In this document: one piece after another, positions 27,662-43,010 of the stretch
Numbering within the stretch: the stretch's first letter is position 1
Layout of the letters: each line of letters begins with the position of its first letter
The notes under the pieces: generated by a model
Told to the model about the DNA's origin: nothing
Seen by the model: only the letters and a program-made list of their open reading frames with translations
The model's database searches: none
Program-made: the position numbers and the translations under genes
Source: a virus
Lineage: Duplodnaviria; Caudoviricetes
DNA: 64,000 nt
Reading direction: 5' to 3' (one strand)
IMG/VR virus record: IMGVR_UViG_3300031993_000006
Location: 160,001 to 224,000 of that record

Positions 27662-29776
27662 ATGATTACTTTTATCGAATATTCCAAAATTGTAGAAGCC
27701 ATGGGCGAATGGGCCAAGACCTACGCGGCTGGCGAGAATACGGTCCCCGATACTGTCTGGGACCATAACCTTGTACTTATCAAGGAGTTCGAGGCGGCCA
27801 ACCCGTCTTTCATCCTTGCGACCTCTCCGACTCGTCATGTCGAAGATGGCGCCACGGGATTCCGTAAGGTAAAGCACGATATCCCGATGATGTCCATCGA
27901 GAACTCGAACGGTATCGAACAGACCAAGGAATGGGCGAACGGTATGTTCAACGATGGCGTTAAGGCTTTTGAGGCCGAGTATAAGATTGATGGTCTCAGT
28001 CTCGCGCTTAAGTATAAGGAAGGCGTCCTTGTGGACGCGGTGACACGAGGTCAGGATAATGTCGGCGACTCCGTATTTGAGAACGCTCTTCGTGTGCAGG
28101 GGGTGATAAAGAAGATTCCTCTTGCCGACGAAGCCGAAATTCGCGGTGAAGTTGTCTGGAAATATGCAGACTTCGAACCGTACAATGACAAGCTTATCAC
28201 CGAAGGCAAGAAGGCGTTTGCAAATCCGAGAAACGGAGCGTCCGGTACTCTTAAGCTCCACGACCCGGATGAAGTCGAACGCCGTAAGCTTTCTTTCATC
28301 GGTTACTTGATTGTTAAGGGTTCCCCTAATCGTTACCAGACGGATGATATCAAGACGCTTGAATCGATGGGCTTTGAAGTGCCGGAACATCACACGGCTA
28401 CGAACTTGGATGACCTCGTTAAGTATGCCGAATCGATGCGCGAACGCCGCTTTGAGCAAGCATATCCGATTGATGGTGTCGTGCTGAAGGTCGACGATAA
28501 GGATGACCAGCCGCGTTTTGGCCGTGCAACCAAGTCCCCGAACTATTTCCGCGCATATAAGTTCCCTCCTGAAGAAAAGGAGACCGAACTCGTTGATGTC
28601 GTGCCGTCTATCGGTATGTCCGGCGCGAATACTCCGGTCTGCATCGTCAAGCCGGTGCAACTTGCGATGACTACCGTTACTCGTATCACCGGTCATAACT
28701 GGGATACAGTGGAGTACCTCGGGTTGTACAAGGGTTGCCATGTGGTAATCCGCAAGGGTGGTGAAATTATTCCGGACTTGGTAAAGTGCGTTGAAACGGG
28801 CCGTTCCAAGGACAGTTACGATGTCGAACGCGAACTCTGCGACAAGAACAAGATTCCTCATGTCAGCCCGTGGGTTCCGACGACTGAAGAAGAAAAGGCT
28901 CGCGAACGCTATATTCGCCCGGCGACTTGCCCGTGCTGTGGCAAGCCACTCAGATGTGCTGTAAACTCTGAAGGAAAGGAATTGGTCAGCTGGGTATGCA
29001 CTAACGAAAACTGCCGTGCTCAGATTGGCGGTAAGCTCGCAAATTTCGTGGGCCGTGAATGCATGAACATCATGGGTATCGGGCCGAGTATCATCGAAGA
29101 CTTGCTGGTTGCCGGAAAACTTACCTTCTTCGACGACTTCTATCATCTTACGATGCAGGATTTTGTCGATGCTTGCGGAAAGCGTGAATCCGGCGCGAAG
29201 AAACTTGTTGCCGCAATCGAGAAGTCCCGTGGCAATTATCTTCATCAGCTCATTGAAGGGTTCTCGATTTCCGGGCTCGGCCACCAGGCTGCCCCGGCGG
29301 TAGCCGACTGTGTTGACCAGGTGGGCGGCCTTGCTGCACTTGCATCGCAGGACGCCGAGTATGTTTCCGAGGTGGCGGGAAAGTTCCGTGACCTCGCCGA
29401 TACCAAGGGCGTATCCAAGGAACTTGTCGATAAGTTCCTTGACTTCATCTGGAGCAACGGGGAGCGCATCCGCGAACTCGTGATGCTTGATGTGGCACAG
29501 AAGGTGAAGCCCGTGGTGTCTATGAAGCTTGCCGGCAAGGTATGCATTATGACGGGAACATTCGACGCCCTCGCCCGCGATGTGTTCAAGAATATGGTTA
29601 CCGAGAATGGCGGTACCATCTGTGGCTCTATCACCAAGAAGTGCAACCTTGTGCTTATGGGTGACGGCGCCGGTCCGGCAAAGAAGGCAGCCATCGAGAA
29701 GCTGACCCGTGCAGGCCAGAAAATCGATGTGTACACCCCGGAAACCCTCCAGCAGTTCCTCGACTTGCTGAAGTAG
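27662..29776 (+). CDS. ligA: NAD-dependent DNA ligase
   Basis: EYKIDG, TRG, EIRGEV, NPRNGASG, IDGVVLK, AYKFP, Zn finger CPCC..C..C, HhH and a C-terminal BRCT. Confidence 0.96.
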   Translation: MITFIEYSKIVEAMGEWAKTYAAGENTVPDTVWDHNLVLIKEFEAANPSFILATSPTRHVEDGATGFRKVKHDIPMMSIENSNGIEQTKEWANGMFNDGVKAFEAEYKIDGLSLALKYKEGVLVDAVTRGQDNVGDSVFENALRVQGVIKKIPLADEAEIRGEVVWKYADFEPYNDKLITEGKKAFANPRNGASGTLKLHDPDEVERRKLSFIGYLIVKGSPNRYQTDDIKTLESMGFEVPEHHTATNLDDLVKYAESMRERRFEQAYPIDGVVLKVDDKDDQPRFGRATKSPNYFRAYKFPPEEKETELVDVVPSIGMSGANTPVCIVKPVQLAMTTVTRITGHNWDTVEYLGLYKGCHVVIRKGGEIIPDLVKCVETGRSKDSYDVERELCDKNKIPHVSPWVPTTEEEKARERYIRPATCPCCGKPLRCAVNSEGKELVSWVCTNENCRAQIGGKLANFVGRECMNIMGIGPSIIEDLLVAGKLTFFDDFYHLTMQDFVDACGKRESGAKKLVAAIEKSRGNYLHQLIEGFSISGLGHQAAPAVADCVDQVGGLAALASQDAEYVSEVAGKFRDLADTKGVSKELVDKFLDFIWSNGERIRELVMLDVAQKVKPVVSMKLAGKVCIMTGTFDALARDVFKNMVTENGGTICGSITKKCNLVLMGDGAGPAKKAAIEKLTRAGQKIDVYTPETLQQFLDLLK

Positions 29777-29867
29777 AAAAAATATAAGCAAATATAGCCT
29801 TCACGGTTTGGAGATTTTGCTATATTTGTAACATAAGGCGAGAGACGGTGACGCCATCGAGCCTTAC

Positions 29868-29940
29868 GCGGGAGTAGCTCAGTTGGTAGAGCGTCGCCTT
29901 CCCAAGGCGAATGTCGGGGGTTCGAGTCCCCTCTCCCGCT
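29868..29940 (+). tRNA. tRNA-Gly(CCC)
   Basis: Canonical cloverleaf; anticodon arm TCGCC-TTCCCAA-GGCGA; no CCA. Confidence 0.95.
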
Positions 29941-29946
29941 CTCTAT

Positions 29947-30278
29947 AAAGTTGGCATTGACGCGTAGCGTCCCATAAGTGACTGGCCAAATAGTGTCGTG
30001 GGGTCCTGCCGACCGAAGCGATGCTTCCCTTAGGGAGTCCGTGGATTCAGCAATGGATTTGCGGATTACTTATGGAATGGTAAGTCGGACATAGGATTGC
30101 ACACTGCACTCTAGCAAGGTGGCGTCCTGGTGGTCGTGCTTGACGGTGTTATGGCCCTGCCGAAAGGTGGAACGCGGCTATGGTGCTGTTGTGCGGTTGA
30201 TGTACTGAGCGACCCCCCGCGGTTGTGAGAAGGTCCGAAAATCTGACAAGCCGGACGCTACGTCTCAATGCCAACTTT
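29947..30278 (+). ncRNA. Unclassified 332-nt structured RNA closed by a roughly 25-bp stem
   Basis: 29947-29972 pairs with 30253-30278 (14 + 10 perfect bp). Internal helix CATAAGT/ACTTATG; GCAA- and GAAA-capped hairpins. Confidence 0.75.
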
Positions 30279-30338
30279 TTGCTATATTTGAGTAGAGCGC
30301 TAAAAAAAGCCTCTACTTTTTTCATATATAGGAATATT

Positions 30339-32963
30339 ATGGCACAGAAAGAACTTGGCCCGGGAAGTGAAGGGGATGCGTACCGATACACTAAGAAAGT
30401 GTTGAAGTCATTGCCGAATGCATCGAGAGTCGAACATATCTACCGTGAAATCGCGCACAACAAGGGAATCTCCTCGTGGACCCGTGCTTGCTATGAGGAA
30501 CTGAGAACGCAGGTCTTCCGTGACGGCCAGTGCAAAATCAAGTTTGCCCCGGGTGTCGCCCGAATAGCATACGGCGAGCTCGAGTTCGGTACTGGCGACG
30601 AAGACTTCCGTCAGCTGGCTGACCTTAGAGATTTTGTTAGAATTATTAGCATCGCGCACTTTGAAACATTTACCCGACATCTTGCGCTTGATGGCAAGGA
30701 ACTGTCATTCAAGGATTTGGTCGAGCGCTTCGGTAATACGGTTTCTGCCAACTGGAAGGAACTGAAGGCTGAACTGCGCAACATCAAGTATGGACCGCGC
30801 CGTTACCAGATAATCTGGCTGGATTCTTTCGCTACCGCGCACAAGTACTATGAATACACCAAGCCCCACAACTGGTGTCACTTGGGTAGCCTCAGCATGT
30901 TCCGAAGCTATTCATTCAACCGCAAGTCGTCCAAGGATGGCACTTCGCGCGTGTCCGTCGTGAAGCTTTATCTTGCTGTCCTTCCGGGATTCGAGACGAT
31001 GACCGAGGACAATCCGCTGTATGGCGAATCTATGCTCGGTATCGATATCGGGCCGGATGGCCGTCTCATCCATGTGAACAACAGGTGGAATCATTCGCAT
31101 GATAATGTTGACGACCGAAAGGGCGATAACAAGTATTCGGAGAAGGAACTTTCCGAGCTGCTCGGCGGTCCTTTCTACAAGATTTGCCCTCCGTTGACAA
31201 AGAGGGAAATGAACCACATTTCCGGCGAACTGAAGCGTCGCCGTGAAGAGGAGAACCGTGCGGCTGCTAACTGGGTTCGCGGGTTTGCCGACCGGGTTGC
31301 TAACGGTGTGCGCAGTAAGCCGGCCAAGGAAACTGAAAGTTTCGTCGATTCTCGCGATAATGTCGAATACCGTACCCGCAAGATTGGCGGGCTGCAGTGG
31401 ATGCTCGACCCGCTTTCACATATGATTATCTCTCCCATCAATACGCCGGAAAATATGGTGAAGCATAAGATGGCGGTCGCCAAAGATTGGGACGAGACGG
31501 ATAAGTTTAACGAGAAAGTTGCCAAGTTCAAAGCTGTTACGCAGGTGACCTATAACAAGGGCGAGGATAATACTGCGGACGATATCGATGAAGACTCTAC
31601 GGTTGAGACGGGCGAGATTGGGGAGGCAAAGTGGACCGAAGTGGGGGAGGAAGTGCGAACCTCGGAATCTTTATCTAGAGCCCCGTCTTATTGTCCGTTG
31701 GTATCAATGGAATCTGGCGGTCGACAGAATCTGTTCTTTGCTACGGACGTGACCAAGCTGTCCCGTGCATACCGTGGTTCGGCCGAACATATCGACCGAT
31801 ACCTTTCCGACTGCCTTGACTATCGCGAAAAGCGCTTGGCGGCGCTCAAGAAGAAGCCGGCGGAAAAACTCATGGGAGACGAGGTGAAGAAACCGTCCGT
31901 CTATAAGGATGATAACTATCTCACTGTGATGGAAAATGAACAGTGGAGCGCGGTCGAACTGATTACTCCGCTTGGATTCGAACCGTCGTCTCGTTCGGTT
32001 GAAAGCGGGTATAGAATAACTAATCAGAAAATGATTATCAACGATGTCAATCCGGGTAAGCAATTCGTGTACTACCAACCGGGCGATTTCGACAGCGTGA
32101 TTCCGGAAGGATGGCGCCTCCCCACGGTGGACGAGTTCGTTGCTATGGCGATGTCCTTTGGTGCAAAGGCGGTATTCCGTAGCAGTGTCGAATATGAGAA
32201 GGATAATTCAATTAATGTGTTCTGCCGTCTGAAAGCGGAAGATATCGTTGAAAAGGCTAGAAGGGCTCCGCATATCGAATTTTGCACGGCTGACCATCAG
32301 TTACGCCGCCGAATGTACGAAAGTGTCATTATTTCCGAAATCAAGAGGATTAGCGTAGATATCGATGATATTGTCGCACCTCCCAATACGCCGGATACAA
32401 TTGTTGTCGAGTCGAAACAGCCGGATGACCCGGATACCACTGAGCCGTTTCAGCACGACCCGACGGTTGACGATGAGCCGCAGGAAGTGATTGAAAACAT
32501 TCCTGCCGCGGTCGGGGTTAGGCTTCCGGACTTGGAGTTCGACATGGGCGATGCCGGGTTCGCTATTCCGAATTCGTCGAGTGCTCCGGCTGAGGCGGAA
32601 GACAGTGATGCCGCGGCGAAAATCCGTGACGGTGCGTTGTCGTTCACTAGATACCCGATTCTGCTGTCGCTTGCCGAAGAGTCTGACTTTGCCGATAACA
32701 AGTCGGTTAAGAAGTTTGACCGTATGTTCTATCGCTTTGACTCGGCGAAGGATGCTGTTCAGCAGCTTTACCTCGATGGTGACGAAGATGATGAGACTCG
32801 AGTGCTTGACTATAACCCGTTTCACCGGTCGACTAAGATTTTGCCTGTTCGGAAACGATATGCGTTTGCAAGGTGGGATTCCAAGCATAAGACATTCAGA
32901 ATCACGCCGTGCCAGAACGACCATAATTCGTCAAGGTATTGCCTGTTGTACGCGGTCAAGTAA
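30339..32963 (+). CDS. 874-aa multidomain protein with split FISUMP/Fib_succ_major-like motifs
   Basis: ATG after AGGA; FVDSRDNVEYRTRKIGGLQWM and IPEGWRLPTVDEF. Confidence 0.65.
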   Translation: MAQKELGPGSEGDAYRYTKKVLKSLPNASRVEHIYREIAHNKGISSWTRACYEELRTQVFRDGQCKIKFAPGVARIAYGELEFGTGDEDFRQLADLRDFVRIISIAHFETFTRHLALDGKELSFKDLVERFGNTVSANWKELKAELRNIKYGPRRYQIIWLDSFATAHKYYEYTKPHNWCHLGSLSMFRSYSFNRKSSKDGTSRVSVVKLYLAVLPGFETMTEDNPLYGESMLGIDIGPDGRLIHVNNRWNHSHDNVDDRKGDNKYSEKELSELLGGPFYKICPPLTKREMNHISGELKRRREEENRAAANWVRGFADRVANGVRSKPAKETESFVDSRDNVEYRTRKIGGLQWMLDPLSHMIISPINTPENMVKHKMAVAKDWDETDKFNEKVAKFKAVTQVTYNKGEDNTADDIDEDSTVETGEIGEAKWTEVGEEVRTSESLSRAPSYCPLVSMESGGRQNLFFATDVTKLSRAYRGSAEHIDRYLSDCLDYREKRLAALKKKPAEKLMGDEVKKPSVYKDDNYLTVMENEQWSAVELITPLGFEPSSRSVESGYRITNQKMIINDVNPGKQFVYYQPGDFDSVIPEGWRLPTVDEFVAMAMSFGAKAVFRSSVEYEKDNSINVFCRLKAEDIVEKARRAPHIEFCTADHQLRRRMYESVIISEIKRISVDIDDIVAPPNTPDTIVVESKQPDDPDTTEPFQHDPTVDDEPQEVIENIPAAVGVRLPDLEFDMGDAGFAIPNSSSAPAEAEDSDAAAKIRDGALSFTRYPILLSLAEESDFADNKSVKKFDRMFYRFDSAKDAVQQLYLDGDEDDETRVLDYNPFHRSTKILPVRKRYAFARWDSKHKTFRITPCQNDHNSSRYCLLYAVK

Positions 32964-32987
32964 TCGGCCTTTATTATCGGAGGAATA

Positions 32988-33752
32988 ATGACATCCAAAA
33001 ATCATGAGAAAATCCTTAAAATTAATGCACAGATAGAAGCGCTCGAGCGTCAGCGAGACACGTTGTTTGAAGAAGATTCTAAGCTGGAACAGAAGGCTAG
33101 GGAAGACGCTTGGAAGAAAGAAAATGATGATTGTATCAAGTTCTGGCAGACACTTGCCGGAAAGGCGTTTACCTTCGGTGAGGATATCATTAAGCATTAT
33201 TATTGGAAGCCGTTTGACAAGGCGACTGAGTACGACTATGTTAGTGTATATTTTCCGCTTAACATTGCCTATTATGATAAGTATAGGGTATCCCTTCTTT
33301 GCCGACATCTTTACACTGGCGAGCATAAAGCTATGCTGATGAATCAGAATCATATGGTTTTGAAAGTCTCTTATTTGGATGGAACATACAAGCCCTCCGA
33401 ACATGAGATTTATGAGGGTGCGGTTCATTTGTTAACTGATGATGAGCTTCAACTGGCGTTTGATTTCTGGCGGAAAAAAGCGAAGCAGTTTTTTGATGAT
33501 GAGTTCACTCGGCCGACGAATAAGCCCTGGGATTGCTCGTTTGACCCGGATAGGTTTAATCGTAGATTTGCGGGAATTGACTCTAGTGATGGGGAAGCGG
33601 TTACTAAGGCTGAACTCGACGAAGATGAAAAGTTTCGTAGGGACCGCGAAATGGTACTTTCTGCCAGGGAATATTATTATAGGGCAATCAAACAGAGTAC
33701 CTATGGAGAAATTCTTCAAGGCATAAGTGAGCGACTCGATGATATGTGTTAG
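32988..33752 (+). CDS. Hypothetical protein
   Basis: GGAGG RBS; 254 aa. Confidence 0.75.
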   Translation: MTSKNHEKILKINAQIEALERQRDTLFEEDSKLEQKAREDAWKKENDDCIKFWQTLAGKAFTFGEDIIKHYYWKPFDKATEYDYVSVYFPLNIAYYDKYRVSLLCRHLYTGEHKAMLMNQNHMVLKVSYLDGTYKPSEHEIYEGAVHLLTDDELQLAFDFWRKKAKQFFDDEFTRPTNKPWDCSFDPDRFNRRFAGIDSSDGEAVTKAELDEDEKFRRDREMVLSAREYYYRAIKQSTYGEILQGISERLDDMC

Positions 33753-33868
33753 TAGGTGCTAATTTGGTGATATAGTAAAGTTTTTTAACTTTTTTCATAA
33801 AATCCCTTGAAAATGAGAAAAACTTTACTACATTATATATAAACATTGAAGCGAAAAGGATTAAAACA

Positions 33869-34006
33869 ATGTCGAAGCAGCAATTAAATAACCGTTGTAT
33901 GTTGACAGCACTGAATGGTGCTCGTTATTTCGCATACGGTTTTTATGCATTCGCACAGTTTGCCGGTTTGGCCGGTAATGCGAATACGGAAGCTGCAACT
34001 GCATAG
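33869..34006 (+). CDS. Putative 45-aa attenuator leader peptide MSKQQLNNRCMLTALNGARYFAYGFYAFAQFAGLAGNANTEAATA
   Basis: AAGGA RBS; follows an AT-rich promoter region (TTGAAA at 33807); stops 25 nt before a terminator. Confidence 0.75.
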   Translation: MSKQQLNNRCMLTALNGARYFAYGFYAFAQFAGLAGNANTEAATA

Positions 34007-34063
34007 TGAGTCTTTTAAGTGGTTCAAAGACAGGCGGTTGCAGAAAAGCAACCGCCTTTCTTT
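33993..34063 (+). terminator. Attenuator: terminator with mutually exclusive antiterminator
   Basis: Terminator AGGCGGTTGC-AGAAAA-GCAACCGCCT-TTCTTT (34032-34063). CTGCAACTGC (33993-34002) can pair 10 bp with GCGGTTGCAG (34034-34043). Confidence 0.8.
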
Positions 34064-34067
34064 ATTA

Positions 34068-34140
34068 GCCGAGATAGCCAAGATGGTCACGGCGCCTGAC
34101 TGAAAATCAGGAGATTGTGGTTCGAGTCCGCATCTCGGCA
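34068..34140 (+). tRNA. tRNA-Phe(GAA)
   Basis: CCTGA-CTGAAAA-TCAGG; cloverleaf. Confidence 0.93.
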
Positions 34141-34153
34141 TAGATTATAATAT

Positions 34154-34228
34154 GGGCCTTTAGCTCAGCTTTGGAAGAGCGCCTGCTTTGCAAGCAGGAG
34201 GCCACCGGTTCGAGCCCGGTAGGGTCCA
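34154..34228 (+). tRNA. tRNA-Ala(TGC)
   Basis: CCTGC-TTTGCAA-GCAGG; G3:U70. Confidence 0.95.
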
Positions 34229-34241
34229 CTATAAATTTTGA

Positions 34242-34317
34242 GGGCTGTTAGCTCAGTTTTTGGTAGAGCGCCTGCATGGCATGCAGGAGGTCACCGGTTC
34301 GAACCCGGTATGGTCCA
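34242..34317 (+). tRNA. tRNA-Ala(GGC)
   Basis: CCTGC-ATGGCAT-GCAGG; G3:U70. Confidence 0.95.
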
Positions 34318-34321
34318 TTAA

Positions 34322-34404
34322 GCCGGTGTGTGCAGAGTGGCAATTGCAGCGGTCTGTAAAACCGCCGCCTAATGGCTTCGTAGGTTCGAGTCCTTCCGCC
34401 GGCA
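34322..34404 (+). tRNA. tRNA-Tyr(GTA)
   Basis: GCGGT-CTGTAAA-ACCGC; long variable arm. Confidence 0.93.
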
Positions 34405-34418
34405 TAATTATTTTGTTT

Positions 34419-34493
34419 GGGCCTTTAGCTCAGTTTTGGTAGAGCGTTCGCTTCGCATGCGAGAGGTCACCGGTTCGATTCCGGTAGGGTCCA
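34419..34493 (+). tRNA. tRNA-Ala(CGC)
   Basis: TTCGC-TTCGCAT-GCGAG; G3:U70. Confidence 0.93.
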
Positions 34494-34507
34494 CTATATA
34501 AATTCAT

Positions 34508-34626
34508 GGGCTTCAAATACAGATGGGTTCTGTGTGACAAGAGGATGAATTCCCGGCAAGTCGAGACAAAGGGCGATACTGCCGGGGCTCAAGCGCACGG
34601 GTCTGGTTCGAATCCAGGGGGGTCCA
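34508..34626 (+). ncRNA. 119-nt Ala-acceptor tRNA-like RNA resembling a tmRNA tRNA-like domain with no mRNA domain
   Basis: Acceptor GGGCTTC/GGGGTCC-A with G3:U70; no D-stem; T-arm TCTGG-TTCGAAT-CCAGG; a long irregular helix replaces the anticodon arm. Confidence 0.65.
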
Positions 34627-34658
34627 CTAGGTAGCCTTTGGTTACAAACAAATTATTT

Positions 34659-34731
34659 TCCACCTTAGCTCAGTTGGTAGAGCGTTCGCCTGTTAAGCGA
34701 AGGGTCCCTGGTTCGAGTCCAGGAGGTGGAG
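34659..34731 (+). tRNA. tRNA-Asn(GTT)
   Basis: TTCGC-CTGTTAA-GCGAA. Confidence 0.95.
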
Positions 34732-34746
34732 CTAAGAACAAATTAA

Positions 34747-34817
34747 TGGGGTGTGGTGTAACGGTAGCACCGCAGATTCTGAATCTGCTAGTTTTGGTTC
34801 GAGCCCAGGCGCCCCAA
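34747..34817 (+). tRNA. tRNA-Gln(CTG)
   Basis: GCAGA-TTCTGAA-TCTGC. Confidence 0.93.
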
Positions 34818-34822
34818 TAACT

Positions 34823-34902
34823 GCCGTGGTGGCGGAATAGGTAGACGCGATGCTCTCAAAAAGCATTTCGAAAGAGTGACAGTTCGAGTCTGTCCCACGG
34901 CA
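34823..34902 (+). tRNA. tRNA-Leu(CAA)
   Basis: ATGCT-CTCAAAA-AGCAT; variable arm. Confidence 0.93.
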
Positions 34903-34909
34903 CTAAACT

Positions 34910-34992
34910 CGGTTGGTGATGGAAGGGTAGACATAGGGTACTTAAAATCCCCCGGGAGCAACCCCGTGCGGGTCCGAGTCCCGCCCTGCCGA
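34910..34992 (+). tRNA. tRNA-Leu(TAA), somewhat divergent
   Basis: Loop CTTAAAA; single mismatches in the acceptor and anticodon stems; T-loop TCCGAGT. Confidence 0.78.
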
Positions 34993-35049
34993 CGGGACTA
35001 TGGAGGAACTATGGATAATGATTCTATTGTATCTGGACAACCGGGATTC

Positions 35050-35120
35050 TGGGCTGTAGTGTAATGGTAGCACTATAGATTTTGAATCTATTGGTCCAGG
35101 TTCGAACCCCGGCAGTCCAA
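35050..35120 (+). tRNA. tRNA-Gln(TTG)
   Basis: ATAGA-TTTTGAA-TCTAT. Confidence 0.92.
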
Positions 35121-35128
35121 TAAATTAT

Positions 35129-35200
35129 GGTGTGTTAGCCAAGTGGGAAGGCGGCGGTCTGCAAAACCGCCATGACCCGGTTCGATTCCGGGGTACACCT
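35129..35200 (+). tRNA. tRNA-Cys(GCA)
   Basis: GCGGT-CTGCAAA-ACCGC; U73. Confidence 0.93.
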
Positions 35201-35289
35201 CGAAACTTTTTGGCAAAAACCTCCCTCTGGGAATCAAGTTTTTTTTGCTATATTTGTAATATCAGGAGTTAGTAAAGCCGTAGTAAAAT

Positions 35290-36606
35290 CTATGGTTTAG
35301 TTTTTATCGAATCCGGGACTCCGAGCTCCGAACCATCCAACCGGAACAGTCCGGAAGTCAACCAGAAGAAGCCTTCTTTCTTGCTCAGGTTGGACAACAC
35401 ATCGCATCGAGGTATGGCGGGAAGGTCCGCTTCATGGTTTCTGGCGGCATTGATGTCGGCATCAATAACGAGGCCGCAATGCGGACAGATGTATTCCTTT
35501 CCCTTCCTAGATGCTTTGTGCACGAGGCCGCAATCTGAACACCGTTGAGAGCGATACGCGGAAGCCTGAAGCTGAACACGGACCCCGCGTTCCTCGCATT
35601 TCATCATGAGCGTATCTCGGATGATTGGATTGGACCAATGGCTCATCAGACGACTGGATTTCTGCTGATATCGGATATTAACGACATCCTCCAGTCCTAT
35701 TTCCTTCACTCCGTCGAGATTGAGCCGTTTCATGGCGAAGTTGACATAGTTCTTCCTTTCTTCTACAGCCTTCTTGAACGCCTTGGAACCCTTTTTCTTT
35801 TTGGACATCTTGTCCATTATGGTCATCAGGTTTATGGTCAGTTTACGGCCGGGACTCCCTTTCTTTGGCGCATTTACTATCAGGTCTGGTGTCACGTTTC
35901 CGTTGGACAGTGATATGGTGGTCTTTGCGCCCTGGTCGGCACCGATTTTGACACCATCATCTCGCAATGGAACATCCTTCTGCCAACGGAGCTGTATACC
36001 GTACTCGTCTATGAGGTATCCGTTGCACCGGGTCCATGTTCCGTCAAGGAACCTGTCAAGATGTCTATGCCGGCATACCGGAAGCTTGATGTGCTCGCCA
36101 CCGGTGCATTTCAGTCGGACATATCCATAGAAATATCCATCTTCGGTCAGTTCGAAATCAGCACATTTGCTGGATACTTCGATACCGGCATCGGATAAGT
36201 CTGGCTTACGTGGAATCGAAGATTCTATCTTGTCCCATAGCCGTTCGTTATATTTCCCTTCGCCGGCGAGCTTGTCGAACATCGCGACACGCTTTGCTTC
36301 CTTGGACAACACTGCGCGGAGCTTGCCGCACAGTTGGTTGGTCAGTGAATTCAGCATACGGGCACTTAACCATGTATCAACATCAAAATGATTGTAGTCA
36401 AGGTATTTTGGAAGTGCGAACTTGAACTTTGTAATGTTGAATTCATGCTCGATGCCATCTTCATACCATATGTATCCGTTCAACCACATGTCATCGCACA
36501 GCAATTGCATCACGCGACGCCATTCCGCAAGCAGAACTGACAGTTCATTCTGTTTGCACTGGTTTGCGTACTTGCTTATGATGTGATTGGTCGAACGAGT
36601 AAACAT
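35290..36606 (-). CDS. tnpB: IS607-associated TnpB
   Basis: IGADQG, IGLEDV, YRSQRCSDCG, CPHCG, DADINAARN; RuvC D-E-D intact. Confidence 0.9.
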   Translation of the reverse strand: MFTRSTNHIISKYANQCKQNELSVLLAEWRRVMQLLCDDMWLNGYIWYEDGIEHEFNITKFKFALPKYLDYNHFDVDTWLSARMLNSLTNQLCGKLRAVLSKEAKRVAMFDKLAGEGKYNERLWDKIESSIPRKPDLSDAGIEVSSKCADFELTEDGYFYGYVRLKCTGGEHIKLPVCRHRHLDRFLDGTWTRCNGYLIDEYGIQLRWQKDVPLRDDGVKIGADQGAKTTISLSNGNVTPDLIVNAPKKGSPGRKLTINLMTIMDKMSKKKKGSKAFKKAVEERKNYVNFAMKRLNLDGVKEIGLEDVVNIRYQQKSSRLMSHWSNPIIRDTLMMKCEERGVRVQLQASAYRSQRCSDCGLVHKASRKGKEYICPHCGLVIDADINAARNHEADLPAIPRCDVLSNLSKKEGFFWLTSGLFRLDGSELGVPDSIKTKP

Positions 36607-36608
36607 GA

Positions 36609-37196
36609 CTATTCTTCCTTGGCCTCCAGGGCTTCCTTCATCTTCTTGGCCTTATTCTGCCCGCGGCGTGCTCCGTATAGGCGACAGCAGAAACTTGTAA
36701 CTATGGCTATCATGTCTTTTATAATATCCTGCTCGTTTGTATCATTGGGATACATCACATCGACAGTACAGTTCAACCTTGATAGCAACCGTTCTATATA
36801 GTTAAACCCAAACCGAGTTAATCGGTCGCGGTTCTCGCAAATTACCGTCGTCGGGTTGCTTGAAATCATTTCCCAGAACTTTGGACGGTTGTCATTCATC
36901 CCCGATGCAATTTCCTTGTATATGGCGGCAACCTTGTATCCGTTCTTCGCGGCATAATCCTTGCACCGTTCTACTTGTCTTTCAAGGTCATCCTTCTTGT
37001 CATGGGTACTTACGCGAGTATAGATGACTACCCGTTCTTCCTTGACTAACGGATTGGCTATGTCCATGTCGACATAGATACTCTTGGTATCTGGGTCCTG
37101 AAAAGCACCCGGTATCTTTCCGGCATGGAACTTGTCGTTTGCCGTCTGGTAGCTCATGCCGTTTTCCTTGGCGTATTTGGATAACTTTACTTTCAT
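36609..37196 (-). CDS. tnpA: IS607 serine-recombinase transposase
   Basis: N-terminal HTH; IYTRVST, LERQ, EIASG, DRLTRFG, SFCCRLYG. Confidence 0.95.
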   Translation of the reverse strand: MKVKLSKYAKENGMSYQTANDKFHAGKIPGAFQDPDTKSIYVDMDIANPLVKEERVVIYTRVSTHDKKDDLERQVERCKDYAAKNGYKVAAIYKEIASGMNDNRPKFWEMISSNPTTVICENRDRLTRFGFNYIERLLSRLNCTVDVMYPNDTNEQDIIKDMIAIVTSFCCRLYGARRGQNKAKKMKEALEAKEE

Positions 37197-37438
37197 TTCT
37201 ATACCCAGTTTATATTTCCTACCATAGAAATTATCTCATATTTACATCATATAATGCATTGTTGTATTATTTTTTACTATATTTCTAGTATTATGATGAA
37301 GGACGATATATGGCATCTCACGGGAACCTCCCGGAAATCCTAAAGAAAACTTACGGAAACGAGTTGACAGGGTTTGAAAATTTGCTATATTTGAGTCAGC
37401 GGGGAATCCACCGAGGTTCCCGAGAAGTTTGACAAGAT

Positions 37439-37629
37439 GGCTGCGATGCCTTCCATATTCAGGTTAAATATGGCGTTGGGTACGATATCCCCGTGCCTGA
37501 ATTATTCAGGTGGCATTTTGGGAGCTTTACGAAACTCCACCGTGCCGTCCGGGAGACGGACGAAGCAGTGCCGAATGTGCATTGCAGGATACCCTTAGTG
37601 GAATAGTGAACACGCGCGGGGTCGCAGCC
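37439..37629 (+). ncRNA. Unclassified structured RNA of about 190 nt
   Basis: Closing helix GGCTGCGAT/GTCGCAGCC; nested GGGTA/TACCC, GGCATT/AGTGCC and CCATATT/AATATGG; follows the promoter at 37364-37393. Confidence 0.55.
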
Positions 37630-37670
37630 GCGAGATATCGCCTGCTCAGGGCGGTAGGGGAATTAAAACC

Positions 37671-37787
37671 GGCGTGATGCTGGCCTACTTGGAACCAATA
37701 CGGATGTTTTTGCCTTTTATCCTGGCTGTTTTACATCCGTCTCCTTTTGGTTGTATCGAACTTACTCCAAGTAGTCCAGCGTCCGCC
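37671..37787 (+). ncRNA. Long hairpin RNA with pyrimidine-rich loop and CUCCUUUU bulge
   Basis: TGCTGG-C-CTACTTGGA/TCCAAGTAG-T-CCAGCG and ACGGATGT/ACATCCGT. Confidence 0.55.
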
Positions 37788-37794
37788 TAGTGTT

Positions 37795-37896
37795 TGGATG
37801 CAATTTGGCGTCCGTTAAAAGGATGGTCAAATGTGCGTGAGCTACACGTCCATTTGTAGTCTCGAGAGGGACGACAAAACGCGCGCATTGCATCCA
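37795..37896 (+). ncRNA. Closed multibranch RNA of about 100 nt
   Basis: TGGATGCAAT/ATTGCATCCA closing stem; internal GAGA tetraloop hairpin. Confidence 0.5.
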
Positions 37897-37899
37897 TTA

Positions 37900-37988
37900 G
37901 CCAGCGAACGGTGTAGCTCAGCGAGGTAGAGCGGGGGAGGAAATATCCCAGGGTCGCCGGTTCGATTCCGGTCACCTTGTAGCTGGCA
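37900..37988 (+). ncRNA. tRNA mimic with extended, interrupted acceptor stem and non-canonical anticodon loop
   Basis: Intact D arm and T arm (GCCGG-TTCGATT-CCGGT). Acceptor GGTG/CACC, then an internal loop, then GCCAGC/GCTGGC. Loop GGAAATA. Confidence 0.65.
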
Positions 37989-38001
37989 AGCCTTTTATTA
38001 T

Positions 38002-38075
38002 CGCGGGGTGGAGCAGTTGGTAGCTCGTCGGGCCCATAACCCGAAGGTCGCGGCGTTCGAGTCCCGCTCCCGCTA
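38002..38075 (+). tRNA. Initiator tRNA-fMet(CAT), C33 variant
   Basis: C1:U72 mismatch; three G-C pairs in TCGGG-CCCATAA-CCCGA; bulged base in the T stem. Confidence 0.88.
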
Positions 38076-38178
38076 CGAAACCCAAACACCCAAATACACC
38101 CACGGCGAATCCTCGGAATCGCCCGCAGTGTTCATGGCCCGGGCCATGGATAATCCCCGGGGAAATTTTGATATGGAA

Positions 38179-38253
38179 GGAGTCATAGCTCAATTTGGTT
38201 AGAGCACCGGCCTGTCACGCCGGAGGTTACCGGTTCAAGTCCGGTTGGCTTCG
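38179..38253 (+). tRNA. tRNA-Asp(GTC)
   Basis: CCGGC-CTGTCAC-GCCGG; G73. Confidence 0.95.
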
Positions 38254-38256
38254 CTA

Positions 38257-38356
38257 AGCGATACCGCTTTATGTTCTTTTGGATGGATAATCATGGCGTC
38301 GACTCACCTCTTCGTTTTGACCTCCTTTTTGGCTTTCTGCAGCGAGCGGTATCGTT
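38257..38356 (+). ncRNA. Hairpin RNA with anti-Shine-Dalgarno-like loop
   Basis: 12-bp stem AGCGATACCGCT/AGCGGTATCGTT enclosing TCACCTC and ACCTCCTTTT. Confidence 0.55.
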
Positions 38357-38694
38357 TGAAGTTTGCCGATACATGTAGGTTGTTCCTTTTTCTCACTTGA
38401 AAAGTTTACAACCCGTGTCGGCTATCAATTTCCCGGACCTGTACAACTCTGTTAAAATTTTGTTCCGACTGGCTCATACAGGCCCGGGCAACCTCATTAA
38501 GTAGTGCCTTATTGTTAAATACGGTTCGAGTCCGGGCGGTCCTTTCCTCGCCAAAAGTAAGGAAATCTGGACAGCTAGAGGAGGAAATATGGTTGGCGAT
38601 TCCGGGTGCTATGATGTTTTGGACAGTGGCCACATAGGAAGTTCCTTTAATTTCGATTGGATGAATTTTACTTCCCGGCGTTCTGTCCTATCAT

Positions 38695-38770
38695 GTCCCG
38701 GTAGCTCAGTTGGACTCAGAGTGCAGCCCTCCGAAGGCTGAGGTCACAGGTTCGAGCCCTGTTCGGGACA
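38695..38770 (+). tRNA. tRNA-Arg(CCG)
   Basis: CAGCC-CTCCGAA-GGCTG. Confidence 0.93.
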
Positions 38771-38894
38771 CTACGATTGAATTTGATTTGTGCTATCCGG
38801 GTTGCTAGCAGTTAACGAAAATGTTAGCAAAACTTAACTAAATATAACGAAATATTCTATTGAAATACATAGAAAATAACCTATATTTAGAAAT

Positions 38895-39390
38895 GCCTAG
38901 TTTGACATGCCGACCGTGTTAAGGCTCTTCAGCAATGGAGTAGGACTAGGCAAGTTAGTCGTATTGCTTGATGCATATTAGGAATATCGCGTAGATGCGG
39001 CTGATTAAATGCCATTACGGCCTACCCAGCAATGGGCAAGGTAGGAAATCACATAGGTCTATCTCTTGGTAGATTTAAGTAGGTTTCAGTTAATGGTCTT
39101 CAGACTCTCCCAGTTAGCTTCTTAAGGGATGTCCTGTCGCATTACCAATACGCGGCGGTGAGTGGCAGGGCATCCCGCTTGAGTGTCTTCATTGGATAGA
39201 CGGGGACTCCCACTTTATGCACAGTAGGCCAAACGCACCTTCCAGCCAGGGTCACGATGCCCCTCCAGGTCCTGCCGGCGATATTGACGCCACGACTGAG
39301 GTGACGAGGTAACTGCGCAATATGAGGCGCCACGGCGCGGCGGTACCCACTGGCCGCGGGAGAAACAGTTGAGAGGCTGTTGCAGTGGGA
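38895..39390 (+). ncRNA. Ornate structured RNA region of about 500 nt (one large RNA or several)
   Basis: Begins just after the promoter variant at 38881. Helices GCCTAGT/ACTAGGC, a 15-bp helix at 39126-39140/39162-39176, and TCCCACT/AGTGGGA; CAGCAATG hairpins; no credible ORF. Confidence 0.6.
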
Positions 39391-39396
39391 CGGTTT

Positions 39397-39469
39397 TCCG
39401 GAATAGCTCAGTTGGTAGAGCGGCTGCATCGTAAGCAGCGGGTCGCTAGTTCGAGCCTGGCTTCCGGAG
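39397..39469 (+). tRNA. tRNA-Thr(CGT)
   Basis: GCTGC-ATCGTAA-GCAGC; U1-A72, G73. Confidence 0.9.
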
Positions 39470-39812
39470 TAACTGTGGAGATAGAATAGCTTGCGCGGCA
39501 TCGAGATGCCTGAATGTTGTCGCGTGGAGTTTCTTGGGGTGACAGGTATCTAGCCCCATGTTATTTTTTGGAGTTTTTCTCCCCTGCCTTTCGGGCGGAG
39601 GGTTCGCGCGTGGTCATCGAAGTGGTCACGCGAAGGTAAAACGATAACCGGGCGTTAATACCCGGACTATGTTTAAAAAACGCTTGTGTTCCTTTTGTAA
39701 TTTGGCCTTAAAAGGAATGAAAAGACTGGCTATATAGCGTGATGGCTAAAACCGTAATGCGGTGCGATTGATGCTGGTCAAAGAGGCAAGTTATGGCGTT
39801 TCTTGCCTTACC

Positions 39813-39886
39813 CGGGCGGGTAGCTCAGTTGGTAGAGCAGCGGTAGCGAATGCCGCGGGTCGCTGGTTCAAGTCCAAGTCGCTCCA
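39813..39886 (+). pseudogene. Degenerate tRNA or tRNA mimic (loop AGCGAAT, nominal CGA)
   Basis: Perfect D arm and anticodon stem; no U33; mismatched T and acceptor stems; short variable loop. Confidence 0.6.
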
Positions 39887-40255
39887 CTAAAGAATTTGAT
39901 AAAGTTTGCCGTGCAGACGAATGGTTTTCTCGTGGGTTTTCCTACTTCATTGAACGAGATTATCGTGAGTCTGCATTGAGAAAGCCCGTATAGCCATACG
40001 GGAAACCTCAGGGGTATGACAGGCACCCGGGCATACTTGTCTGTTTTACTATGTCTTCCGGGTAATTGTAGTGCAATGACAGTTTTCTCTTTTTGTTTCT
40101 TTTCGCATTACAGATATACGGGGTCCGGCTCCAAAGGTAATCTGGAAGCCGTGAGTACATTACATTATTGTGCATACCCGGGTGGCTCCGGGAGATTCCT
40201 GGGTTGAATTTCTTGGATGGCCGCTAGCAGGTTTTCAAGGGAAACAACCCATTCC

Positions 40256-40331
40256 GGTTCCGTAGCTCAGTTGGATTCAGAGCGTCTCGCTACGAACGAG
40301 GAGGTCCCAGGTTCGAGCCCTGGCGGAACTA
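40256..40331 (+). tRNA. tRNA-Arg(ACG)
   Basis: TCTCG-CTACGAA-CGAGG. Confidence 0.93.
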
Positions 40332-40463
40332 CTATTTTGATTTTTCTGAATCCCGCTAGGTACTTAGGGGGATAGGGCAGGACAGCGTGTCAGAAGCGTT
40401 GATTACCGGGGCGATGCATTGCCAATGGGAATCTAACTGACCCCGCGCGTTTGATTGTTTGAT

Positions 40464-40538
40464 GTTCCGGTAGCTCAACTTGGACAGAGCGTCTCCCTCC
40501 TAAGGAGAAGGTTGCGCGTTCGAGTCGCGCCCGGGATA
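40464..40538 (+). tRNA. tRNA-Arg(CCT)
   Basis: TCTCC-CTCCTAA-GGAGA. Confidence 0.93.
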
Positions 40539-40545
40539 CTAAACT

Positions 40546-40625
40546 CGGGGTGTAGTTCAGCCAGGTTATTATAGAGTGCTTGCTTTGGAAGCAAGATGTC
40601 GTCAGTTCGAATCTGGCTACCCCGA
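40546..40625 (+). tRNA. tRNA-Pro(TGG), A37 variant
   Basis: CTTGC-TTTGGAA-GCAAG; C1-G72; enlarged D loop. Confidence 0.88.
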
Positions 40626-40640
40626 CGAGAAGATTTTTAC

Positions 40641-40732
40641 GGAGGCGTGGACGAGTTGGTCTATGTCGCACCCCTGCTAAGGGTGTAGGGCAGATAAAAC
40701 TGCCCTCGCTAGTTCGAATCTAGCCGCCTCCT
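40641..40732 (+). tRNA. tRNA-Ser(GCT)
   Basis: CACCC-CTGCTAA-GGGTG; long variable arm. Confidence 0.93.
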
Positions 40733-40739
40733 CTAACTT

Positions 40740-40812
40740 TCCGGATTAGCTCAGCTGGTAGAGCACCTGATTTGTAATCAGGGGGTCGGCGGTTCGAGCC
40801 CGTCATCCGGAG
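40740..40812 (+). tRNA. tRNA-Thr(TGT)
   Basis: CCTGA-TTTGTAA-TCAGG; U1-A72, G73. Confidence 0.92.
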
Positions 40813-40909
40813 CGGATTTTGGGAGATTCCCGGCGGTTTCCCGAAGAACTGAGAAAGACTCATGTTATATGTCCTTGTGTGTCACCGGGGTCCCTTTTAG
40901 GTAACAACA

Positions 40910-41065
40910 ATGAAGAAGAAACCATACACTTCACCAAAGATGGAAGTCGTCAATTACGAAGCCGAAACAAGGCTTCTCGCAGGTTCTTCCACTGAAGACG
41001 ATGACCCGTACTGGAAACCGCCTGAGACTCCGGCAGGATGCCAGTCTGCATGGTGGTGCGGGTAA
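40910..41065 (+). CDS. 51-aa peptide with RiPP-leader-like N-terminus (MKKKPYTSPKMEVVNYEAETRLLAGS-STEDDDPYWKPPETPAGCQSAWWCG)
   Basis: Below the ORF-track cutoff and translated by hand; YxxP..LLAGS pattern; AGGT upstream. Confidence 0.75.
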   Translation: MKKKPYTSPKMEVVNYEAETRLLAGSSTEDDDPYWKPPETPAGCQSAWWCG

Positions 41066-41073
41066 GGCTTTAC

Positions 41074-41146
41074 GGCGCTATCGTCTAGTGGCCAAGGACA
41101 AGGCCCTCTCAAGGCTTAAACACCGGTTCAAATCCGGTTGGCGCTA
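41074..41146 (+). tRNA. tRNA-Glu(CTC)
   Basis: AGGCC-CTCTCAA-GGCTT. Confidence 0.93.
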
Positions 41147-41854
41147 TAGTTTAATCGTTCCGTTCGCAACCGAGATTCTCCGGAGAATATCCCGGGGGAC
41201 AACGAGGTTGATATGGAACTGGCCCTTCGTGGTACTTGCCGCGAAATACGGGCCGTAATCATCGAAGTTCCTCAGCAGGGTTCTCCCGTGGAATCTCGTG
41301 GTGCTCCCGTTGCGGACAGTATCCTCTCGTCGGGCGCGGTAGCCGTTATCTGCCCAGCATTCCTTTATTCGTTCGCACCGGTCGTTGATGCTTTCCATCG
41401 TGAGGCCGTATCGAGCGAGTTCGGCGAGAAGCCGGGGTTTTGCAACAAGGGCGTACTTGATTTCCTCTGGGTGCCACTCGGGTTCTGACCGGAAGCGGTC
41501 AATCCAGAGCAGCATATAGGAATCGGTGAGTATGTCCGGGTTGATGAACCATCCGGGCTTTCCCTCGGTATCATCCGGGGAATGCGTGGTGAAGAGTTCG
41601 AAGCTGTATGTCCGGAGGGCGTGGCCTTCACCGGTACAGGAATCGACTCCGTATGATGTCGCAGCCTTTTCGTCACACTGGTATGTTTTATTTTTGAGAT
41701 AGAACGATATGTCGATGCCCAGCTTCTGTGTGCTTGCGTCTTCATTGCGCTTGACTTCGGAGAATCCCCAGGTATCGGTATATAGGTTCGCGTCAAGTAT
41801 AGTACCGAGGTACTGTTCCTGAGCGTGGTCTTTCTTGTAAGAGTGATGGAACAT
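41144..41854 (-). CDS. Putative PD-(D/E)XK (restriction-endonuclease-fold) protein
   Basis: QKLGIDISF..YQCDEKA..SFE pattern; antisense to the tRNA array. Confidence 0.55.
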   Translation of the reverse strand: MFHHSYKKDHAQEQYLGTILDANLYTDTWGFSEVKRNEDASTQKLGIDISFYLKNKTYQCDEKAATSYGVDSCTGEGHALRTYSFELFTTHSPDDTEGKPGWFINPDILTDSYMLLWIDRFRSEPEWHPEEIKYALVAKPRLLAELARYGLTMESINDRCERIKECWADNGYRARREDTVRNGSTTRFHGRTLLRNFDDYGPYFAASTTKGQFHINLVVPRDILRRISVANGTIKL

Positions 41855-41874
41855 ACTTGATGTTTATAGATTTC

Positions 41875-42013
41875 GACCCGGTAGTTTAAATGAGCTATGG
41901 CTAAAGACCAAGTGCTTAGAACACTGGCGGCACGAGGGCGCAATGAAGTTTTGTCGAATAATGGATGTGTCAATCACCGCCGGCAATGCAGGTAATTAGT
42001 CCTGTCCGGTTTT
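41875..42013 (+). ncRNA. Degenerate tRNA-Leu(TAG)-like RNA with a variable region of about 60 nt
   Basis: GACCCGG-TAGTTTAA start; AGTG-CTTAGAA-CACT; T-like arm GCAGG/CCTGT followed by CCGGTTT. Confidence 0.35.
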
Positions 42014-42162
42014 CTTTTGTGCCTAGCTAAGGTACTGCGGAATCGTGGTATATCTGGCGCCCTGGTCAATGCGCAAGGCCCAAAGGTTCCCGATGAAGGT
42101 GGACGGGACAACGGCACTCTTTTGATATAATTTCCTGATTGTTATTGGTTTGAGGTAGGAAT

Positions 42163-42681
42163 ATGTCTGTATTGCATATAATGGTGGGAATACCGTCATC
42201 GGGGAAGAGTACATACGCCAAGAAGCTTGCCGAGGAAACCGGTGCTGTAATCATATCTAGCGACGGAATCCGCGCGGAACTGAGCGGTACCGAAGAGTAT
42301 AACGAAGCCCAGAATTACAAGGTGATTTGCACCATCCGTGGCAGGCTCCGCCATCTCATAAAGGACCACGATGTCATCATAGACGCTACCAATGTCCATG
42401 TTGCCGATTGGAGGGACTACATCGACCGATGCCCGCCCGATATCACCGTTAAGGTGCATTGGTTCGAGATTCCGCCTGAAGTCGCTATGCAGCGTATGGA
42501 GGGGCGTGAGCGCAAGGTCTGCAAGGAAGTTCTCCGGGACAAGTGGAACACGATGACCTCCAACAAGAAATTTCTCGAAAAATACATAAACCCGAAAATA
42601 TCGTGTACATTACGCCCGATATGCACTAGATTACCTCGTAGGATAACTAGAGGTATTGTATATGGCAAAGAAGAAGCGTGA
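42163..42681 (+). CDS. Polynucleotide-kinase-like P-loop kinase (AAA_33 type); C-terminus possibly frameshifted
   Basis: GIPSSGKST, ISSDGIR, VIIDATN. Confidence 0.85.
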   Translation: MSVLHIMVGIPSSGKSTYAKKLAEETGAVIISSDGIRAELSGTEEYNEAQNYKVICTIRGRLRHLIKDHDVIIDATNVHVADWRDYIDRCPPDITVKVHWFEIPPEVAMQRMEGRERKVCKEVLRDKWNTMTSNKKFLEKYINPKISCTLRPICTRLPRRITRGIVYGKEEA

Positions 42682-42841: not shown

Positions 42842-42850
42842 GGATTTACC

Positions 42851-42940: not shown

Positions 42941-43010
42941 TTTCTAAGGCGCCGTGCAGAAATGCGCGGCGCTTTTGCTATATTTGTTAAATATAAATGA
43001 TGAGGAATTT

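Follow-up and report, generated by a model that had tools for sequence, protein, structure and literature searches.

The window analysed here is a stretch of 64,000 nucleotides (nt) that forms bases 160001-224000 of a 259,974-bp IMG/VR virus record (IMGVR_UViG_3300031993_000006; estimated completeness 91%). ARAGORN finds 24 transfer RNA (tRNA) genes in the record, and every one of them lies within the window. The subject of this work is a compact cassette at the head of the first block of these genes, made up of a candidate promoter, a ribosome-binding site (RBS), a short open reading frame (ORF), here called the leader, and an intrinsic terminator that stands directly before the first tRNA. 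The features, in order along the window, are as follows.

33804..33845, plus strand: candidate promoter region, with a conserved CCCTTG box, a sigma-70-like pair and the motif ATATAAAC

33855..33881, plus strand: segment 1, comprising the RBS, the start codon and the first four codons, which pairs with segment 2 in the finished RNA in minimum free energy (MFE) folds

33869..34006, plus strand: leader ORF of 45 codons with an ATG start and a TAG stop, an open frame that is kept in all relatives

33992..34016, plus strand: segment 2, comprising the final four codons, the stop codon and the next 10 nt, with segment 1 or the terminator 5' arm as alternative partners

34032..34067, plus strand: intrinsic terminator (segments 3:4), with a 10-bp stem, a loop and a U-rich tail

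34068..35201, plus strand: tRNA block 1, with 11 tRNA genes and a tRNA-like element

The sigma-70-like pair of the candidate promoter consists of TTGAAA (33807-33812) and TACATT (33829-33834), separated by 16 nt, and the phage-wide motif ATATAAAC lies within the same region at 33837-33844. A sigma-70-like match is also present at the homologous place in the relative L018. The RBS, AAGGA at 33856-33860, is 8 nt ahead of the leader ATG at 33869. The leader stop codon lies 25 nt from the terminator stem, which has 10 bp, 7 of them GC (34032-34041 with 34048-34057), and encloses a loop at 34042-34047; it is followed by a U-rich tail at 34058-34067 (-21.4 kcal/mol). The tRNA-Phe gene begins at 34068, the U tract ending 1 nt ahead of it. 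An earlier reading of this DNA by a model, made from the letters only (the sequence-only reading), had described a 45-codon upstream ORF with an RBS, and a strong terminator 25 nt beyond it just before tRNA-Phe; both were found as described, the ORF at 33869-34006 with AAGGA 8 nt upstream, and the terminator with its stem at 34032-34057 and its tail running to 34067.

The order of genes in block 1 is Phe, Ala(tgc), Ala(ggc), Tyr, Ala(cgc), the tRNA-like element, Asn, Gln(ctg), Leu(caa), Leu(taa), Gln(ttg) and Cys. No sigma-70-like promoter was found between the terminator and the first tRNA in the window or in the relatives L018, L024 and L114. A search of positions 29000-44000 with Rfam (cmscan, E up to 1) returned only the tRNAs plus two chance matches, and gave no match to the His, Leu, Thr and Trp leader families or to the T-box.

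No Pfam domains for a sigma-70 factor or for a T7-type or multisubunit RNA polymerase were found in the whole record, and intrinsic terminators followed by the probable promoter motif ATATAAAC are found ahead of many of the long ORFs of the phage. Together these observations make it likely that the host polymerase is used. Motifs resembling the Shine-Dalgarno sequence precede 48% of the long ORFs, as against 9% in a control window. Host-type transcription, termination and Shine-Dalgarno-dependent initiation are reasonable assumptions for this phage. In the form ATATAAAC(T), the motif occurs 10-45 nt upstream of about 15 long ORFs genome-wide (for example at 33837-33844 and at 57315 in the window), often directly behind a GC-rich hairpin with a T run, and it probably represents a phage promoter class.

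Five sequence clades have the cassette in front of their tRNA array, and the relatives, near and far, come from rumen-type metagenomes. The window's own clade, W, comprises L001-L012 and L015-L017; clade B comprises L018, L019, L022, L116 and L118; clade C is L023, clade D is L024 and L114, and clade E is L115. Clades B-E were obtained by a metagenome scan with the protein encoded by a neighbouring gene of 912 amino acid residues (aa), and by look-ups of its homologues. The 912-aa protein of clades B-D is only 41-45% identical to the copy in the window, and the clade E copy is 54% identical to that of clade D. The gene order is nevertheless common to the clades, and runs from tRNA-Gly(ccc) through the 912-aa gene, a promoter-like box, the RBS, the mini-ORF and a hairpin with a U-rich tail to the array. 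The leaders of clades B-E are homologous ORFs of 31-35 codons, situated ahead of a GC-rich hairpin, and the arrays behind them contain 12-36 tRNAs. In every clade the terminator lies directly before the first tRNA. The identity of this tRNA varies by clade (Phe, Ala or Arg), so that what the cassette goes with is the head of the array, whichever tRNA stands there.

Within clade W the cassette is nearly invariant, positions 33800-34000 being 98-100% identical to L001 and L007; in the same comparisons identity is 82-94% in the adjoining 254-aa gene (32988-33752) and 84-97% in 100-nt bins of the tRNA region. In all relatives conservation sets in at about 33775, regardless of the sequence upstream. 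The sequence-only reading had made much depend on a conserved leader, and the leader is indeed kept in five clades.

Outside this phage group no homologues of the leader peptide were found, a profile search of 1.8 billion proteins giving no family. INPHARED searches with DNA and protein gave only generic tRNA matches, or nothing, and IMG/VR scans with the 254-aa protein and with the leader alignment gave no further relatives. An IMG/VR scan with a degenerate leader pattern gave 87 matches, of which the sole real one (L101) duplicates the L018 contig. Near the more remote homologues of the flanking genes (L013, L014 and L117) there is no tRNA array, and so they are uninformative on the cassette. 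No further leader and terminator cassettes were found in the larger array gaps of L022, L023, L114, L116 and the window, and judging by these sequences this phage family has one cassette only, which heads the array.

The leader evolves as would a translated frame. Between the window and L018 (clade W against clade B), the proportion of synonymous differences (pS) is 0.89, which means that synonymous sites are saturated, and the proportion of nonsynonymous differences (pN) is 0.28. Between the window and L011 the ratio of nonsynonymous to synonymous rates (dN/dS) is 0.2, with 10 of the 17 substitutions falling at codon position 3; between the leaders of clades B and C it is 0.64. The start codon, the frame and an AGG(A) located 8-10 nt upstream are retained in all clades, and the leaders can be aligned as peptides, with the order of residues partly conserved (R-Y-F/S and F/C-A-G motifs). 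This is the pattern of an ORF under purifying selection, and it provides evolutionary evidence for the translation of the leader that the sequence-only reading had presumed.

In four clades the RNA that spans the RBS and the terminator is folded much more stably than its shuffled versions (z scores of -6.0, -5.7, -5.1 and -5.3). The fold plan is shared: the whole ORF forms one long irregular hairpin, and this is followed by the terminator (3:4). In the MFE structures of all clades the base of the long hairpin is formed by the RBS and start region (segment 1) pairing with the last codons, the stop codon and the next 10 nt (segment 2). This pairing, which sequesters the RBS, was absent from the description given in the sequence-only reading. 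Own pairs of helix 1:2 have energies of -15 to -18 kcal/mol (shuffle P 0.001-0.009), as against about -8 to -12 kcal/mol for cross pairs of clade W with B, C and D; for segment 1 of the window, the duplex energy is -18.3 with its own partner and -8.6 to -12 across clades. Cross pairs among clades B-E, and of clade E segment 1 with clade W segment 2, are similar to own pairs. The cassette was also compared with the messenger RNA (mRNA) of type I toxin-antitoxin systems, which encodes a small hydrophobic membrane peptide, is countered by an antisense RNA and hides its RBS in a 5'-3' fold. A 5'-3' helix that hides the RBS is present in the phage leader. The peptides of clades B-E have Lys, Asp, Glu, Gln, His and Ser throughout, with no uninterrupted hydrophobic stretch, and no antisense promoter was flagged in 33800-34070.

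The alternative partner for segment 2 is the 5' arm of the terminator. As the sequence-only reading had pointed out, 33993-34002 can form 10 bp with this arm (34034-34043, including one G-U; duplex -17.2 to -18.3 kcal/mol), and in the other clades the pairing is kept by other sequences. A duplex this strong with the terminator arm is found in 0.3-1.2% of shuffles and in 0.6-0.7% of real 62-nt windows of the genome. When the 62 nt upstream are searched for a partner of the terminator 5' half, the strongest pairing falls in each clade on the last four codons and the stop codon. Own pairs of this 2:3 antiterminator have energies of -14 to -21 kcal/mol, and the arm and loop nucleotides involved differ among W, B/C, D and E. 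The pairing has a shared five-base anchor, from which it extends into the arm in W, to six loop bases in B and to three loop bases in D; clade E uses another stem sequence around the anchor. Two positions from the anchor the pair is C-G in W, A-U in B and G-C in D. For the end of a B-type ORF, the duplex energy is -17 to -21 kcal/mol with its own terminator and only -9 with that of W. MAFFT was unable to align the W and B antiterminator pairs in common columns and, because the register differs between them, own and cross duplex energies were compared instead of counting columns.

The terminator hairpin itself has compensatory double changes at 10 of 16 pairs in an alignment of eight relatives. 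All three pairings (1:2, 2:3 and 3:4) are thus maintained across the clades through different sequences. The stop codon lies 24-35 nt ahead of the terminator 5' arm in all clades, a spacing at which a terminating ribosome would cover segment 2 and not the terminator. As predicted from sequence, the arrangement is the four-segment layout of the classical trp, his and ilv attenuators.

The leader is rich in codons that are read by the tRNAs behind it. It contains codons for Phe (4), Ala (11, these being GCA 6, GCC 2, GCT 2 and GCG 1), Tyr (3), Asn (5), Gln (3), Leu as TTR (3) and Cys (1), so that 30 of its 45 codons are cognate to block 1 and all 11 anticodons of the block are covered. Leader codons CGT, ACA and ACG match the later tRNAs Arg(acg), Thr(tgt) and Thr(cgt). 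This tally is exactly that of the sequence-only reading. The same set of codons makes up 26-27% of the coding codons of the phage (binomial P 4e-8), and as many as 30 matches are found in just 0.04-0.05% of the 45-codon windows of its long ORFs.

For comparison between clades, block 1 was defined as the tRNAs after the terminator up to the first gap of more than 300 nt. In the window 30 of 44 leader codons are cognate to the phage's own block 1 (background 0.26), and in L001, also of clade W, 36 of 44 (background 0.32-0.33). The other leaders give 27 of 34 in clade B (background 0.47-0.48), 27 of 34 in clade C (0.44-0.45), 28 of 34 in clade D (0.62) and 15 of 30 in clade E (0.20). Window-based P values for the enrichment are 1e-4 to 6e-3 for W, B and C, and the enrichment holds with all Ala codons removed. 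The distinct block-1 anticodons touched by the leaders number 11 of 11, 14 of 14, 17 of 18 and 17 of 18.

The match follows the content of the arrays. Blocks of the L001 type have 14 tRNAs, the additional ones being Leu(cag), Gly(gcc) and Leu(tag), and the W leader has CTG and four GGT codons. The arrays of B and C add Ile, two Lys, Gly(tcc), Leu(gag) and Arg(tct), and their leaders contain ATT, AAA/AAG, GGA and CTC, with AGA also in C. Clade D has a block 1 that begins with Arg(acg) and Glu(ttc) and that alone combines Arg(acg) with three tRNA-Ser and tRNA-His; its leader has three CGY codons, GAA, four Ser codons that cover all three Ser tRNAs, and two His codons. In clade E the block is short (three Ala, Arg(acg), Phe and Asn) and the leader has 8 Ala, 4 Arg, 3 Asn and 2 Phe codons. 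The true assignment of leaders to arrays comes top of the 120 permutations, and top of 24 when B and C are treated as one clade.

On this basis we favour, with moderate confidence, the view that the cassette is a leader-peptide transcription attenuator that decides whether RNA polymerase proceeds into the first tRNA block of this rumen jumbo phage. The analysis lends support to the attenuator proposed in the sequence-only reading, in that all of its predictions that could be tested in silico held; readthrough upon stalling is what such an attenuator would be expected to show.

In the proposed mechanism, transcription would start about 20-30 nt upstream of the RBS, and a ribosome would load while the RBS is still free and translate the 45-codon leader. 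With fast decoding, the ribosome at the stop codon would cover segment 2 (33992-34016), the terminator would form, and transcription would end 1-4 nt ahead of tRNA-Phe. With no ribosome loaded, segment 2 would pair with segment 1, covering the RBS and start, and the terminator would again form. If ribosomes were held within the leader, segment 1 would be occupied or unwound and segment 2 would be free; it would then pair with the emerging terminator 5' arm and loop, so that the terminator would be blocked and the polymerase would enter the tRNA genes. From this geometry we infer which way the switch works, that the competition is kinetic, and what the signal is.

Between two thirds and four fifths of the leader codons are decoded by tRNAs that the block encodes, and for this reason the supply of those tRNAs is the most likely signal; the attenuator most probably reads the decoding speed of the codons that the array serves. 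This would imply a negative feedback, in which a scarcity of cognate host or phage tRNAs allows transcription of the array, and an abundance of them stops it. More tentatively, at what we would put as somewhat short of an even chance, the leader may serve as a test peptide, which samples nearly all of the tRNAs of the block and co-evolves with their repertoire, so that the array is switched on when any of them is short and off when decoding is restored. As speculative examples, the shortage might be caused by cleavage by a host anticodon nuclease, or by a mismatch in codon usage. A homeostatic feedback on tRNA supply, or a general sensing of translation speed, would fit equally well as a trigger by anticodon nucleases.

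Several observations weigh against these proposals. The U-tracts of the terminators are interrupted in clades B and C, and a simple terminator scan calls the window's terminator only and not those of the relatives. In equilibrium folds of the full-length RNA the terminator is the MFE structure under every ribosome mask tried, and before the 3' arm exists the 5' arm of the terminator pairs upstream even without a ribosome. Folding with and without a ribosome footprint, which had been suggested in the sequence-only reading, therefore failed to separate the two states at equilibrium, and no switch was seen. Because the terminator is the MFE structure under all masks, the switch must be kinetic, as it is in trp, and its default state is uncertain.

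For the codon match, the difficulty is that when synonymous codons were resampled with the peptide held fixed, P was 0.004-0.02 in W but 0.17-0.7 in B, C and L019. This gain is weak, and the codon signal is therefore mostly one of amino-acid composition, which could in part follow from a hairpin-rich RNA or from the function of the peptide. In addition, the window phage lacks about 300 nt (34994-35049, compared with L001 7195-7499) that bear Leu(cag), Gly(gcc) and Leu(tag), and yet its leader retains the CTG and the four GGT codons. The clade D leader is not the one best matched to its own block by normalised score, and the clades are related, so that the tests of enrichment are not independent. 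The codon-matched leader of the sequence-only reading is thus borne out in that the match beats chance clade by clade, but it lies mainly at the level of amino acids and not of synonymous codon choice. Similarly, the covariation of leader with tRNA content that it had proposed to look for is seen across the arrays, but not in the unchanged leader of the window after the loss of three tRNAs, nor in the normalised score of clade D.

These results give some weight to the idea that the same attenuator reports general translation capacity, through ribosome coupling or speed, and not particular tRNAs, with the amino-acid bias a by-product of structure and ancestry. Resampling gives an almost equal match, the ORF is one long hairpin and its sequence is constrained by this, the CTG and GGT codons outlived the tRNA deletion, and among related clades the enrichment could be one ancestral accident. 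We nevertheless think it unlikely, given that each clade is enriched relative to its own, different block, also after removal of Ala, and that the clade-specific residues (Ser and His in D; Lys, Ile and GGA in B and C; Arg in E) coincide with tRNAs in block 1; the true pairing of leaders with arrays is also the best permutation.

Another possibility is that the leader is an ordinary small gene with a somewhat leaky terminator and a trans-acting product. Its peptide might be aimed at a host tRNA-directed defence, for instance, like the 26-residue Stp of T4. The tRNAs would then be supplied by constitutive readthrough and processing by ribonuclease P (RNase P), and the closing helix would serve for mRNA stability or translational silencing. 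The purifying selection and partly conserved order of residues would suit this explanation, as would the resemblance of the promoter and RBS to those of other phage genes and the sequestration of the RBS in the finished RNA. It would however not account for the complementarity of the last four codons to the terminator 5' arm and loop, which different sequences achieve in different clades, for the constant position of the cassette right against the first tRNA without an intervening promoter, or for a composition that tracks the tRNA block. Searches gave neither homologues nor domains for the peptide, and dN/dS between B and C is 0.64. As the sole account of the cassette we regard it as distinctly improbable. 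It is worth adding that a leader peptide can have a role in trans alongside attenuation, as has been described for peTrpL (PMC7298713), and such a role of the phage peptide could coexist with attenuation in the same way. Finally, a non-coding structured RNA with an incidental frame (a precursor leader, a processing site or a small RNA released by RNase P) would account for the very strong folding (z -5 to -6), for a nucleotide conservation within the window's clade above that of neighbouring genes and some tRNAs, and for the fact that an RNase P cut at tRNA-Phe would yield almost the same RNA as termination, but we give it very little credence in the face of an ATG, RBS spacing and frame kept in five clades despite saturated synonymous change, a pN far below pS with a substitution bias to third positions, and no match to any Rfam family.

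The closest likeness to the attenuator that we propose is with the multivalent attenuators of enterobacteria, in which the ilvGMEDA leader carries codons for Ile, Val and Leu, and the thr leader codons for Thr and Ile. These also have a short translated leader near the promoter that is rich in codons for several amino acids together, 1:2, 2:3 and 3:4 pairings, and a terminator just before the regulated genes. They differ in that they regulate biosynthetic enzymes, whereas the phage cassette would regulate tRNA genes and is an element in a phage; its panel is much wider (7-12 amino acids and 11-18 anticodons), with no tandem runs of a single codon, and its segment 1 includes the RBS and start codon. 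The trpL, hisL, pheL and leuL leaders similarly set the position of the ribosome against a terminator and antiterminator, with the stop codon beside the antiterminator strand, and have a terminator that is more stable than the antiterminator, hence their control is kinetic. They sense one amino acid via clustered codons and have 14-30 codons, compared with 31-45 in the phages. The pheST attenuator of E. coli, with its pheM leader, also attenuates a component of the decoding machinery by reading the supply of charged tRNA, but its target is a synthetase and it responds to one amino acid, while in the phage the regulated product, tRNA, would be the sensed molecule. T-box riboswitches share terminator and antiterminator control that answers to tRNA status; they differ in binding uncharged tRNA directly, have no ORF, and control synthetase and amino-acid genes. 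In the ermC/ermB and bmrCD resistance leaders, slow translation of a short ORF remodels the downstream RNA (PMC8274638, PMC4191407), as proposed here. They however answer to drug-bound ribosomes on specific nascent peptides, and the phage leader shows no hint of a drug or arrest motif.

Full-text literature searches gave no report of attenuation of phage tRNA genes. Genes for tRNA are usually seen as controlled at their promoters, by growth rate or by the stringent response. Those of phages have been considered either a constitutive supplement or decoys against defences that cleave tRNAs, and are known to counter defences that target tRNAs (PMC10264068, PMC11464382). A tRNA array gated by a leader would show that phages gauge decoding capacity and supply tRNAs on demand. 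If the leader does act as a test peptide, tRNA genes would for the first time be seen to be under attenuation control. Classical attenuation would then reach a new kind of target, one whose own product is the molecule sensed, and a direct feedback loop would be closed. The cassette would also provide a compact and portable multi-codon sensor of translation status, and the five clades of leader, with their different tRNA blocks, are natural variants that are ready for reporter tests.

Some further features of the surrounding tRNA island were noted. Upstream of the cassette, tRNA-Gly(ccc) precedes the 912-aa gene in all clades, and this tRNA and the sequence just after it (29800-30000) are 99-100% identical to L001 and L007, the surrounding genes being about 90% identical. 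The 254-aa gene that separates the cassette from the 912-aa gene is an indel, which L008-L012 and L016 lack; clade B has an unrelated 116-aa gene in its place, and distant homologues of the 254-aa gene (L013, L014) are found in other contexts.

The tRNA-like element of block 1 (34506-34630, between tRNA-Ala(cgc) and tRNA-Asn) has an acceptor-like end and a T arm, and is called by neither ARAGORN nor Rfam. Full transfer-messenger RNA (tmRNA) genes are present deeper in the arrays of clade B and D relatives (with tags of the ADNAFAY.AAA type), and ARAGORN finds none in the window. A candidate terminator at the end of block 1 (35196-35262) was considered and is unsupported (z -0.7).

Beyond it, an IS607-like insertion on the minus strand (35290-37196) splits the tRNA island at a place where L001 is continuous. 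It carries genes for a serine recombinase (with a Resolvase N-terminal domain) and for TnpB (with a Cas12f1-like TNB domain), and TnpB insertions are found also in the arrays of L115 and one close relative. Between their tRNA genes, the arrays of relatives carry a gene for a peptidyl-tRNA hydrolase (PTH2) and ORFs resembling DUF559 endonucleases (L116 15060-15497; L118 16139-16576 and 14407-15381; L114 14680-15729). At 40546-40625 in the window, Rfam identifies a tRNA (49 bits) that ARAGORN misses, whose counterpart in L001 is tRNA-Pro(tgg). A near-consensus sigma-70-like promoter (TTGACA, 16 nt, TATATT; 11 of 12 matches) is located at 37364-37391, about 500 nt before the second tRNA block, which therefore seems to be under its own, different control.

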